From IMG/VR virus record IMGVR_UViG_3300037089_000131: a stretch of 63,019 nucleotides of DNA; one strand, given 5' to 3'. The notes beneath the pieces are model-generated. The model had not been told where the DNA came from. It made no database searches and saw nothing but the letters and a program-made list of their open reading frames with translations. Shown piece by piece: positions 61,545 to 62,733 of this stretch (the stretch's first letter is position 1; each line of letters opens with the position of its first letter). Both the position numbers and the translations under genes were made by a program. Source of the DNA: a virus.

Positions 61545-61620
61545 GGAGACGGTAGTTCAATGGTAGAACGCCTGCCTGTGACGCAGGTAGTTGTGGGTTC
61601 GAGTCCCATCCGTCTCCCCA
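61545..61620 (+). tRNA. tRNA-His(GTG) with encoded G-1
   Basis: Extra G before acceptor GAGACGG/CCGTCTC pairs with discriminator C73; D GTTC/GAAC; anticodon stem CCTGC/GCAGG with loop CTGTGAC; T-arm GTGGGTTCGAGTCCCAT; CCA. Confidence 0.7.
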
Positions 61621-61628
61621 AGTTTTGT

Positions 61629-61704
61629 GAGTGAGTGGTCTAGCGGCTACGATGCTGGTCTCCAAAACCATGCGACGGGGGTTCGAGTCCCTCCTCACTT
61701 GCCA
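61629..61704 (+). tRNA. tRNA-Trp(CCA)
   Basis: Acceptor GAGTGAG/CTCACTT; anticodon loop CTCCAAA; T-arm GGGGGTTCGAGTCCCTC; CCA. Confidence 0.6.
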
Positions 61705-61742
61705 AGTTTAAGTCGTGACGTGAATGAACCGTCATGCAGATT

Positions 61743-61817
61743 GTGGCCGTAACTCAGTGGAAGAGTGCTTGGCTGTGAACCAGGATGTCGTGGGTTCGAT
61801 TCCCACCGGTCACCCCA
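61743..61817 (+). tRNA. tRNA-His(GTG) second copy without encoded G-1
   Basis: Acceptor GTGGCCG/CGGTCAC; D ACTC/GAGT; anticodon stem CTTGG/CCAGG with loop CTGTGAA; T-arm GTGGGTTCGATTCCCAC; discriminator C; CCA. Confidence 0.6.
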
Positions 61818-62106
61818 ATTATGGGCGGAAGGTTACAGCGAGTGAGCAGGGACCTAAAAAGTAGCCGGGAGTCATGACCCGGTGAAACCCGATATGTCAC
61901 GCTGATGGACGCCGCCACTGAATCGAAGCTGGCAGACCCGCATGACCGTTCCGGGTAATAAGAGTCAAAGGTCGTTAAGCAATGACCGCCAGCGAAGTCA
62001 CGGGAGCAGATGCAGGGTTCGAGACCTGCCAGCCAAACCAAGGCTGTAGTTCAAGAGGAAGAAGGCTCCCTTCGGGGAGGAGGGAAACTCCTCCCAAGAG
62101 TTTTGA
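61818..62106 (+). ncRNA. ~290-nt highly structured non-coding segment inside tRNA array 2 (tRNA-like T-arm, UUCG tetraloop hairpins, terminal hairpin + T-run)
   Basis: GCAGG-GTTCGAGA-CCTGC then CAGCC-AAACCAA-GGCTG; CTCCC-TTCG-GGGAG; GGAGG-GAAACT-CCTCC-caagagTTTT. No ORF. Confidence 0.3.
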
Positions 62107-62182
62107 GGTCCCGTAGCCCAGTGTATAGAGCACTCCGCTCCGAACGGAGAGGTCGTGGGTTAGATTCCCACCGGGACTTCCA
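62107..62182 (+). tRNA. tRNA-Arg(CCG) with atypical T-loop TTAGATT
   Basis: Acceptor GGTCCCG/CGGGACT; anticodon stem CTCCG/CGGAG with loop CTCCGAA; T-stem GTGGG/CCCAC but C56 replaced by A; CCA. Confidence 0.5.
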
Positions 62183-62205
62183 AGATTGAACGAACTGAAT
62201 AATGT

Positions 62206-62283
62206 GCCCTCGTAGCTCAGCCCGGATAGAGCGGTCGCCTACGAAGCGAAAGGTCGGGAGTTCAAATCTCTCCGGGGGTACCA
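62206..62283 (+). tRNA. tRNA-Arg(ACG)
   Basis: Acceptor GCCCTCG/CGGGGGT; TAGCTCAGCCCGGATAGAGC D-arm; anticodon loop CTACGAA; T-arm GGGAGTTCAAATCTCTC; CCA. Confidence 0.65.
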
Positions 62284-62290
62284 AAGTTAT

Positions 62291-62367
62291 GCCCCCGTAG
62301 CGCAACTGGAGAGAGCGCTTCGCTACGAACGAAGAGGTTGCAGGTTCGAGTCCTGTCGGGGGTCCCA
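62291..62367 (+). tRNA. tRNA-Arg(ACG) second copy
   Basis: Acceptor GCCCCCG/CGGGGGT; anticodon stem CTTCG/CGAAG with loop CTACGAA; T-arm GCAGGTTCGAGTCCTGT; discriminator C; CCA. Confidence 0.6.
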
Positions 62368-62410
62368 TATTTACACTTGTCGCCATATTTACAGCGACAG
62401 TAAATATTGT

Positions 62411-62485
62411 TCCTGGGTAGCTCAATGGTAGAGCGTTCGGCTGTTAACCGAATGGTTCGGGGTTCGAGTCCCTGCTCAGGAGCCA
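62411..62485 (+). tRNA. tRNA-Asn(GTT)
   Basis: Acceptor TCCTGGG/CTCAGGA; D GCTC/GAGC; anticodon stem TTCGG/CCGAA with loop CTGTTAA; T-arm CGGGGTTCGAGTCCCTG; CCA. Confidence 0.7.
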
Positions 62486-62491
62486 AGTTAT

Positions 62492-62570
62492 GGAGCCGTG
62501 ACGCAAATGGGTTAAGCGTAGCCGCCTTTTAAGCGGACGGTTGTGGGCACCCAATCCACCGACTCCACCA
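62492..62570 (+). tRNA. tRNA-Lys(TTT)-like with non-canonical T-loop (no T-Psi-C motif)
   Basis: Acceptor GGAGCCG/CGACTCC (one mismatch); D ACGC/GCGT; anticodon loop CTTTTAA; T region GTGG-GCACCCAAT-CCAC lacks TTCRA; A73 + CCA. Confidence 0.45.
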
Positions 62571-62576
62571 TATTGT

Positions 62577-62652
62577 GCGCTTGTAACTCAATGGCTAGAG
62601 TACTCGGCTCTTACCCGAGGAGTTGGAGGTTCAAGTCCTCTCAGGCGCACCA
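62577..62652 (+). tRNA. tRNA-Lys(CTT)
   Basis: Acceptor GCGCTTG/CAGGCGC; D ACTC/GAGT; anticodon stem CTCGG/CCGAG with loop CTCTTAC; T-arm GGAGGTTCAAGTCCTCT; CCA. Confidence 0.7.
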
Positions 62653-62657
62653 AGTTT

Positions 62658-62733
62658 GGGTCGGTAGCTTAACCGGCAGAGCAGGGGCCTCTTAAGCCCA
62701 AGGTTGAGGGTTCGATTCCCTCCCGACCCACCA
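62658..62733 (+). tRNA. tRNA-Lys(CTT) second copy
   Basis: Acceptor GGGTCGG/CCGACCC; anticodon loop CTCTTAA; T-arm GAGGGTTCGATTCCCTC; CCA. Confidence 0.65.

Follow-up and report, generated by a model that had tools for sequence, protein, structure and literature searches.

A tRNA-Lys(UUU)-like gene with a conserved replacement of the T-loop in the tRNA array of a large phage, a candidate for nuclease evasion

Phage-encoded tRNAs can rescue infection from immune systems that cut tRNAs (PMC12409363). The most frequently targeted tRNA, tRNA-Lys(UUU), is a target of PrrC, the prime target of AriB from the PARIS system and the top target of RorSlfn5 (PMC10264068, PMC12409363, PMC13056530). Here we describe a tRNA-Lys(UUU)-like gene with a replaced T-loop, located at positions 62492-62570 of a 63,019-nt stretch of virus DNA (IMG/VR record IMGVR_UViG_3300037089_000131), which as a whole is called the window below. 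The gene lies in the second of two tRNA arrays of the window (array 2).

AriB also cuts tRNA-Thr(UGU) and, less well, tRNA-Asn(GUU); it contacts U16-U17 of the D-loop and needs further distal contacts that its authors could not map (PMC12409363). The Schlafen nuclease CbCash is switched on by type III CRISPR and cleaves the T-loop at UUC, and a single change of U54 or U55 abolishes cleavage; whether phage tRNAs are targeted was left open by the authors (PMC13462974). On the phage side, Pnk and Rnl1 of T4 repair tRNA-Lys that was cleaved by PrrC (PMC10264068, PMC12409363), and tRNA arrays, divergent duplicates, Pnk/Rnl1, Thg1-like enzymes and 8/4 tRNA-Ser are already known from phages (PMC10264068, PMC5389517). 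In T5, whose variants are tRNAs of canonical cloverleaf form, the tRNA-Lys(UUU) substitutions that were tested comprise two of the anticodon stem (U39A, A41C) and C16 of the D-loop. Work on the anticodon loops of phage tRNAs facing host tRNases noted the presence of rnl1/rnl2 ligases in coliphages that encode tRNA-Lys(UUU). To our knowledge, every escape described so far involves the anticodon arm or single base changes in the D-loop. An account of a conserved T-loop replacement in phage tRNAs was not found in the literature searched, which left out most subscription journals.

Like the T5 tRNA-Lys, in which bases read by the nuclease deviate from those of the host tRNA, the gene described here is a phage copy of tRNA-Lys(UUU). 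In contrast to T5, the replacement comprises the T-loop as a whole, the phage has a host other than E. coli, and resistance is something that we infer. As proposed in the work on anticodon loops, the deviations may lie where tRNases bind, and the window likewise encodes predicted Pnk and Rnl1; in contrast to that work, the anticodon loop is standard here and the deviation is found in T-loop and elbow. As with the PARIS target set, the variant elbow occurs mainly on Lys(UUU) and Thr(UGU), and the arrays also hold a structurally odd Asn(GUU).

Structure, conservation and spread of the variant tRNA-Lys(UUU)

Across the whole window, ARAGORN called 20 tRNA genes in two arrays. The Lys(UUU)-like gene was not among them, also not with 80% thresholds, with introns allowed or in tmRNA mode, and it was missed by the default Rfam filters. 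With permissive filters it scored 36.0 bits against RF00005 (gathering score 29; E 2e-5 to 3e-6), and the match was full length (model positions 1-71 of 71) in cloverleaf form. The acceptor stem has 7 bp with C5.A68, followed by a 4-bp D stem and the D-loop AAAUGGGUUAA, which contains GGG and in which G18 and G19 are present. The anticodon stem includes G27.A43 and closes on the loop CUUUUAA (C32 U33 U34 U35 U36 A37 A38, thus with U33 and a purine at 37); a 5-nt variable loop, A73 and an encoded CCA complete the gene.

The T arm reads GUGGG-CACCCAA-UCCAC, contains no TTC and has G53.U61 in place of G53-C61. Where T54-Psi55-C56-R57-A58 is expected, C54 A55 C56 C57 C58 A59 A60 was found, only C56 being retained. 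The preliminary description of the array had noted a missing TTCRA loop next to otherwise intact arms, and the loop CACCCAA bears this out; its version of the T arm, a 4-bp stem with a 9-nt loop, is an equally possible reading of GTGGG-CACCCAA-TCCAC. By E. coli rules, the identity elements for LysRS are the anticodon base U35 with U34 and U36 and the discriminator A73. Anticodon UUU and A73 were kept in 9 of the 9 Lys(UUU) variants described below.

The exact 17-nt T arm was found in six IMG/VR contigs of up to 317 kb, always between a tRNA-Asn and two tRNA-Lys(CUU) genes. Related loci are referred to here by L numbers; L320 and L321 are contigs of the same genome from other samples (window coordinate = L320 coordinate + 50973), and when scanned both had the identical variant gene. 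Samples that contain this genome are ENA ERZ28656667 (WOOD18-1), JGI 3300037225, ERZ27254250 and SRR7151659. At least 8 other phage contigs carry the same T arm in tRNA genes, usually in the Lys(UUU) slot. Metagenome scans by anticodon arm yielded L080 and L056. L080 is a divergent phage whose variant gene occupies the Asn-X-Lys(CUU)x2 slot too and combines the same T-loop with acceptor, D and T stems that differ from those of the window copy; L056 has the T-loop CAGUCAA. From additional scans came L130, L133 (the phage of L056 again), L141, L180 (a contig of a metagenome-assembled genome) and L318. The T arm of the window gene was present also in L130, L180 and L318, and in L141 it was carried by a tRNA-Thr(UGU). 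An exact pattern of D arm and anticodon arm returned only the same six IMG/VR contigs; a loose pattern of D-loop and T-loop gave chance matches and no new member among the matches listed, and its tighter version led to L318. When the array was compared with INPHARED by blastn, matches were obtained at the level of tRNAs only and no close relative was found. A conserved protein of the window had at most 47% identity to proteins of Bordetella, Burkholderia and Pseudomonas phages, and for the 201-aa upstream protein no related locus was detected in IMG/VR.

In an alignment of 8 distinct sequences, 94.6% of the cloverleaf cells were paired and 15 of 21 pairs showed both-sided changes; none of 500 shuffles reached this, and slid controls gave 35-51%. 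With 13 sequences, 91% of the cells were paired and 21 of 26 pairs were compensatory, the changes being spread over all four stems. Within the T stem, 49:65 switches between G-C, A-U and C-G and 50:64 between U-A and C-G, and the block GGG-CANNCAA-UCC is constant. A covariance model of the family gave 81-101 bits for its members vs at most 65 bits for ordinary tRNAs.

A plain pseudogene, i.e. a decayed tRNA-Lys(UUU) copy in the array, would account for the failure of two tRNA finders, for the two stem mismatches and for a fold energy no better than that of shuffled sequences (z -0.33). It is hard to reconcile with an identical non-canonical loop in at least 9 phage lineages that have compensatory changes in every stem. 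The mismatches are explained as well: C5.A68 is U5.G68 in relatives, and G27.A43 is common in ordinary tRNA-Lys(UUU) genes. We therefore regard decay as scarcely credible. As judged from sequence conservation, the Lys(UUU)-like gene appears to be a selectively maintained atypical tRNA, not a pseudogene. The preliminary description had called it atypical, and the recurrence of its exact T arm in syntenic arrays of six IMG/VR contigs points to more than chance; the possibility raised there that the atypical Lys and Arg genes are mere pseudogenes is contradicted by the covariation of the stems and, for Arg, by the compensated 19:56 pair presented below.

Cellular genomes were scanned with the anticodon loop plus the variant T arm as query, using one genome per species (185,579 species). 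Only one of the 37 matches was tRNA-like, namely L180, a member of a 24-gene tRNA array on a contig of 663 kb. This contig is binned as Acidobacteriota; its flanking ORFs gave only a sigma factor, and it may be chromosome, prophage or a mis-binned phage. The variant elbow was thus observed almost only in phages. Of the genes recovered by two anticodon-free scans, four distinct ones were Lys(UUU) and one was Thr(UGU), and another had the unusual loop CCGAUUA. Altogether, the 16 variants comprise Lys(UUU) (9), Thr(UGU) (2), Val(UAC) (2), Ile (2) and Phe (1), a distribution to be read with the Lys bias of the early scans in mind.

The proposed alternative elbow and readings of its function

In the variant, (U)GGG(U) of the D-loop is complementary, in antiparallel orientation, to (A55)C56-C57-C58(A59) of the T-loop. 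The candidate inter-loop pairs are 17:58, 18:57, 19:56 and 20:55, arranged around the canonical G19-C56, and three to five Watson-Crick pairs are possible. The longest complement between D-loop and T-loop had a mean of 3.7 nt in 11 variants vs 2.66 ± 0.21 nt with shuffled D-loops, and 0 of 2000 shuffles reached the mean of the variants. When all 16 distinct sequences were considered, the three core pairs were paired in 16/16, 14/15 and 15/15 cases. Both-sided swaps from G-C to C-G occurred in the gene at L056:9154 and in Thr(UGU) and Ile(UAU) of L318, and a both-sided swap from U-A to G-C was seen in Phe(GAA) of L056. Complementarity and swaps together suggest an alternative elbow in which the two loops would be joined by a short helix.

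tRNA-Pyl and the type II mammalian mitochondrial tRNAs likewise lack the T54-Psi55-C56 motif and show unusual contacts between D- and T-loop; they have no G18 G19, and their D-loops are small or make no contact with the T-loop (PMC7609411). Unlike these tRNAs, the variant keeps G18, G19 and C56, its loop contact is apparently extended to a Watson-Crick helix, and it belongs to another isotype and to a phage array.

A covariance search returned more variant-elbow tRNAs missed by ARAGORN in L056/L133, L180 and L318. L133/L056 (IMGVR 3300050821_001527) and L318 (IMGVR 3300035171_000016) are phages of 150-200 kb with many non-TTC T-loops, including GGCAGAG, UGCGACU, CAGCCAA and UCGCCAG, which ARAGORN misses. 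In these phages, tRNA counts are underestimated and remodelling of the elbow is widespread.

With slightly more confidence than doubt, we lean towards the view that the variant is a maintained tRNA-Lys(UUU) with a rebuilt elbow, which decodes AAA and escapes a host defence nuclease. The gene would be transcribed and processed with its array neighbours, and its acceptor, D and anticodon features would preserve the function of a lysine tRNA, with the T-loop replaced by C-A-C-C-C-A-A. The inter-loop pairs would extend the canonical G19-C56 into a short D/T helix, forming the alternative elbow. The tRNA could then decode the rare AAA codons of the phage and supply the Lys(UUU) function, and the changed elbow would hide it from a host nuclease that reads D-loop, T-loop or elbow besides the anticodon arm.

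By analogy with the nucleases introduced above, and in view of the T4-type repair genes of the window and of the variant's bias towards Lys(UUU) and Thr(UGU), evasion is the leading candidate reason for the changed elbow. Having no U54/U55 and an elbow that seems to be re-zipped, the tRNA would be a plausible escape form, a lead that comes from resemblance only. The gene is a phage-encoded isoacceptor of a nuclease-targeted tRNA, placed in a phage array, and its elbow differs from all but one cellular tRNA-Lys gene scanned; elbow reading by AriB and CbCash is known from other hosts. The slot itself is otherwise empty in most cases: no canonical Lys(UUU) gene was found in the window or the next 8 kb of the same genome, nor in the array regions fetched from L003-type phages, L080 and L180. 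The variant Thr(UGU) of L141 likewise takes a UGU slot that would otherwise be empty. We also considered the absence of the E. coli AriB site UAAUC/A and found it uninformative, since ordinary tRNA-Lys genes with the same stem lack this site too.

Several points weigh against evasion by a decoding tRNA. RNase P, TrmA, TruB and the ribosome should recognize a tRNA that has lost T54, Psi55 and A58 less well. Folded by minimum free energy as a single sequence, the window copy does not form a cloverleaf, and the structural argument rests on covariation instead. Support for the helix comes from four compensating, related sequences at three positions and was spotted after the fact, and L056:9914 (T-loop CAGUCAA), tried as a further member, does not fit. 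In L002 and L008 the variant stands between two identical canonical Lys(UUU) genes (a canonical copy of L008 lies at 1174-1249) and is therefore not needed there as sole decoder. The decoding demand is small, as AAA makes up only 7% of the Lys codons in 17 long ORFs of the window. No more than 2 of the 21 T-loops in the window deviate from TTC; with the other 19 canonical, the phage would not escape a general T-loop cutter such as CbCash. Finally, L056/L133, L180 and L318 have variant elbows on tRNAs for Phe, Val and Ile too, hence the link to the PARIS targets is not exclusive.

As to codon usage in the same 17 ORFs, GAA accounts for 26% of Glu and CAA for 22% of Gln codons, and the avoidance of AAA goes beyond what GC content alone suggests.

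The rarity of AAA would also suit a decoy or sponge, as would the fact that L002 and L008 have two canonical Lys(UUU) genes next to the variant. Such a decoy would be a tRNA-Lys(UUU)-like RNA that titrates a Lys(UUU)-specific defence nuclease, a sensor or another host factor and does not take part in translation; its altered elbow may keep the RNA off the ribosome or make binding non-productive. Non-decoding tRNA mimics are plausible in this phage given the anticodon-less, UUCG-capped tRNA-like gene in the same array (L320 14382-14460), and non-productive complexes between viral tRNAs and immune effectors have been raised as a possibility (PMC12409363). However, through all compensatory changes the variants have retained their acceptor stem, anticodon loop, A73 and CCA, of which only a part would be required by a pure binding decoy. 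The variant also occupies the sole Lys(UUU) slot of most arrays, and the same elbow is present on other anticodons that fill otherwise empty slots as well. A nuclease-resistant variant and a decoy, both put forward in the preliminary description, are the two best functional readings; the decoy is in our judgement rather unlikely, and resistance is preferred.

The near-complete set of tRNAs (28 genes in array 2 plus array 1) raises the question whether the variant is an ordinary decoder whose elbow drifted neutrally or was compensated, in a phage that carries a full tRNA set for codon supply or host independence with no link to immunity. Elbow variation is tolerated in this phage, in whose Arg tRNAs position 19:56 varies freely yet stays Watson-Crick, and L133 and L318 carry many non-TTC T-loops on diverse anticodons. 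On the other hand, the T-loop and its flanking GGG/UCC are invariant while the stems have diverged heavily, which indicates positive constraint on this exact solution. The strong Lys(UUU) bias and the single tRNA-like match among 185,579 cellular genomes do not fit neutral variation either, and we hold it to be unlikely.

Staphylococcal tRNA-Gly isoacceptors used for cell-wall synthesis have non-standard T-loops and are diverted from translation. With this precedent and the rarity of AAA codons in mind, a non-ribosomal use was considered, in which the Lys-charged tRNA would be withheld from EF-Tu and the ribosome and pass its lysine to another acceptor, or the RNA would assist a phage enzyme as primer or cofactor. 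However, a scan of 31 window ORFs revealed no aminoacyl-transferase of the Fem, MprF or L/F-transferase type, and the same elbow is found on Thr, Phe, Val and Ile anticodons; a use of this kind is very improbable.

Extending the preferred reading of nuclease evasion beyond the single gene, large soil and peat phages might possess a phage-specific class of alternative-elbow tRNAs that evolved to hide from elbow-docking nucleases and stayed ribosome-competent. Such a class would be marked by a C-rich loop that replaces T54-Psi55/A58 and is predicted to be zipped onto D-loop G17-G19(U20) by Watson-Crick pairs. We offer this tentatively, as a possible but doubtful generalization.

Array 2, its other unusual tRNAs and the tRNA repair genes

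Array 2 and the features at its borders are as follows.

61508-61541, + strand: intrinsic-terminator-like hairpin with T run, closing the upstream gene block just before array 2
61545-61620, + strand: tRNA-His(GUG), genome-encoded G-1 opposite C73 (ARAGORN, Rfam)
61629-61704, + strand: tRNA-Trp(CCA), ordinary (ARAGORN, Rfam)
61743-61817, + strand: tRNA-His(GUG) without templated G-1 (T at -1, C73) (ARAGORN)
61926-62040, + strand: conserved element of about 115 nt, with closing helix GCTGGC/GCCAGC, two hairpins, then a T-arm-like hairpin and CCA
62107-62182, + strand: tRNA-Arg(CCG), tertiary pair 19:56 changed from G-C to U-A (ARAGORN)
62206-62283, + strand: tRNA-Arg(ACG), copy 1 (ARAGORN, Rfam)
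62291-62367, + strand: tRNA-Arg(ACG), copy 2, 74% identity to copy 1 (ARAGORN, Rfam)
62411-62485, + strand: tRNA-Asn(GUU), ordinary (ARAGORN, Rfam)
62492-62570, + strand: variant-elbow tRNA-Lys(UUU) (Rfam with permissive filters, covariation)
62577-62652, + strand: tRNA-Lys(CUU), copy 1 (ARAGORN, Rfam)
62658-62733, + strand: tRNA-Lys(CUU), copy 2, 65% identity to copy 1 (ARAGORN, Rfam)
62953-63019, + strand: tRNA-Asn(GUU) with long variable arm, first 67 of 87 nt (the window end cuts the gene)

Between 61546 and 62733, ARAGORN called nine tRNA genes, namely His(GUG) x2, Trp(CCA), Arg(CCG), Arg(ACG) x2, Asn(GUU) and Lys(CUU) x2, which scored 48-71 bits against RF00005; the Lys(UUU)-like gene is the tenth. 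The isotypes and anticodons are those listed in the preliminary description. CCA is encoded in all 21 tRNA genes of the window (the 20 ARAGORN genes and the Lys(UUU)-like gene), and a TTC(A/G)A T-loop is present in 19 of them, the exceptions being the Lys(UUU)-like gene and Arg(CCG). The commonest spacer between tRNA genes is 5-8 nt; the Lys(UUU)-like gene is separated from either neighbour by 6 nt. Duplicated isoacceptors share 65-75% identity, which gives numbers to the earlier remark that the copies differ and points to old, divergent copies. The flank with the terminator-like hairpin is kept in the relatives L001, L003, L006, L007, L008 and L080, and a 91-aa protein encoded directly upstream of the array (60974-61249) was found in 12 contigs from several samples.

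In the contigs of the same genome, array 2 continues past 62733 with 18 more genes, giving 28 genes in about 7.5 kb, of which the segment 61545-62733 makes up the first third. The additional genes are Asn, Phe x2, Met x3, Pro x4, Arg x4, Gln x2, Trp and one anticodon-less tRNA-like gene; in L320 the Arg genes are Arg(UCG), Arg(CCU) x2 and Arg(UCU), and the Trp gene has 88 nt. Array 1 contains Tyr x2, Leu x6 and Ser x3-4, so that both arrays cover at least 12 amino acids. With this coverage, overlap with any list of nuclease targets is expected and does not indicate a selection of isotypes; the earlier idea that the isotypes were chosen to match the targets of anticodon nucleases is not supported. 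Array content, divergent duplicates and the A56 of tRNA-Arg are ordinary in this context.

Array 1 (31163-33123) consists of long-arm (class II) tRNAs only, the tRNAs being sorted into arrays by structural class. It includes an HNH-like ORF (32118-32600), and HNH endonuclease genes were also seen inside the tRNA arrays of the relative L008 (590-1010) and of the same genome (L320 15677-16327). Directly behind array 1, on the minus strand, an 823-aa ORF (33461-35932) carries two Pfam domains of the Major Vault Protein, the shoulder (E 1.5e-23) and the vault repeat (E 7e-11), which is unusual for a phage.

The second exception from TTC, tRNA-Arg(CCG), has the T-loop TTAGATT, i.e. A56 where C56 is canonical, as reported in the preliminary description; the D-loop AGUGUAUA supplies the matching U19. 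The 19:56 pair of Arg(CCG) is U-A in the window, L003, L008 and Tunturi_5, G-C in L080 and C-G in L141. From this pattern, A56 is one side of a compensated tertiary pair with U19 and not a defect. The other Arg tRNAs of the genome (L320 16363-18007) have U-A at 19:56 in CCU, C-G in UCU and G-C in the others, and one Arg(CCU) copy has C55.

Four protein genes of the window are predicted to serve tRNA or RNA repair and maturation.

6961-8058, + strand: T4-type polynucleotide kinase/phosphatase Pnk (Pfam HAD_PNKP and AAA_33; PHROG 505, E 5e-65)
9210-10667, + strand: T4 Rnl1-type RNA ligase (Pfam RNA_lig_T4_1; PHROG 562, E 7e-44)
46212-47084, + strand: Thg1-like tRNA-His guanylyltransferase (PF04446, 95.7 bits, E 2.7e-27; PHROG 4717, E 3e-63)
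56672-57637, + strand: RlaP-family nucleotidyltransferase of an RNA repair pathway (PF10127, E 1.6e-10; PHROG 388)

By their domains, Pnk and Rnl1, the two components of T4-type tRNA repair, are both encoded by the phage, and together with RlaP they indicate an investment in the repair of broken tRNAs. As in T4, both types of repair enzyme occur beside a Lys-rich tRNA set; unlike in T4, no mechanistic link leads from the variant tRNA to the repair enzymes, repair and replacement being separate counter-measures. Pnk, Rnl1, RlaP and the Thg1-like gene together make up an unusually full kit for tRNA repair and maturation.

The Thg1 family is known to add G-1 opposite C73. The two tRNA-His genes differ in exactly this respect, as the preliminary description had seen: G is found at -1 in the first (61546) and T in the second (61743), both with C73. 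A His gene that lacks G-1 and a Thg1-family domain are thus combined in one window, and the Thg1-like protein is likely the supplier of G-1 to the second tRNA-His. The tRNA-His of L080 has the same acceptor stem as the copy at 61743 and lacks G-1 as well. Right after this gene follows, in both phages, the element of about 115 nt, with 88% identity over 98 nt between the window and L080 10537-10650; it gave no Rfam match at E<10 and no tRNA or tmRNA call by ARAGORN. The 289-nt gap 61818-62106 that contains the element had a fold z-score of only -2.2 and Rfam noise such as YrlA (E 2.2), and a 22-nt core pattern of the gap had no match in IMG/VR. A tmRNA, an intron-containing tRNA and a permuted tRNA were tried for this gap and rejected, there being no fitting acceptor strand.

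Further tRNAs of unusual structure were noted in this and related arrays. The long-arm tRNA-Asn(GUU) cut by the window end is complete in L320 (11980-12066, 87 nt). Genes of this kind (85-89 nt, U1-A72, G73, class II-like) recur in several phage arrays, with copies at L080 11117-11205, L056 8959-9043, L013 6640-6728 and L318 7386-7474, the last adjoining the variant Lys(UUU). In E. coli, Asn(GUU) ranks third among the targets of AriB. The anticodon-less tRNA-like gene (L320 14382-14460, about 2.4 kb past the window end; also L002 1842-1915) has normal acceptor, D and T arms and CCA, and a long UUCG-capped hairpin as anticodon arm. Having no anticodon, this gene is incapable of decoding and may represent a tRNA mimic. 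Besides the ordinary tRNA-Trp(CCA) of 76 nt there is a second one (L320 15360-15447, L003 8233-8322), which has a long variable arm and measures 88-90 nt, and canonical and structurally odd copies are paired in the phage for Trp, Asn and His. Tunturi_5, a cultured Acidobacteriota jumbo phage (Tunturiibacter phage, PP885688.1; host Tunturiibacter psychrotolerans), has an 85-nt tRNA-Lys(UUU) with long variable arm and normal T-loop (L319 8801-8885) in a stretch of the record in which no tRNA gene is annotated, and thus a further structural variant of this isoacceptor. In L008 (2036-2232), a tRNA-like gene with acceptor GCCCGUG/CACGGGC, normal T arm and CCA is split by about 130 nt, possibly by an intron or by an insertion of very large size.

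Between Ser(GCU) and Ser(GGA) of array 1, a tRNA-like gene with anticodon UGA (32847-32932) was missed by ARAGORN. Its 8-bp acceptor and 4-bp T stem (8/4) are like those of allo-tRNAs, and it scored 34 bits against the Rfam tRNA-Sec model, below the gathering score. The Tyr copy at 31406 also scored with the tRNA-Sec model and was rejected as an allo-tRNA, a normal 7/5 class II tRNA-Tyr fitting equally well. The allo-tRNAs (Mukai et al., NAR 2017, PMC5389517) resemble the present case as non-canonical tRNAs from soil and peat metagenomes, Acidobacteria and phage tRNA clusters, and within the window the Ser(UGA) candidate is the one that is allo-tRNA-like. They have 8/4 or 9/3 acceptor/T stems and a long variable arm, whereas the variant Lys(UUU) has 7/5 stems, a 5-nt variable loop and a new T-loop.

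Significance for phage tRNA biology

As standard tRNA finders overlook the variants, the tRNA repertoires of phages and their 'missing isoacceptors' are counted wrongly. For engineering, the orthogonal elbow could make such a tRNA a useful natural scaffold. The variant would allow a direct test of whether nucleases that read the elbow or T-loop shape phage tRNAs, a question left open in the study of CbCash (PMC13462974). The conserved replacement of the T-loop would imply that the most invariant part of a tRNA can be rebuilt and still be selected for. If the reading of nuclease evasion is true, the variant elbow would represent a second route of tRNA-based immune evasion besides mutations of the anticodon arm.

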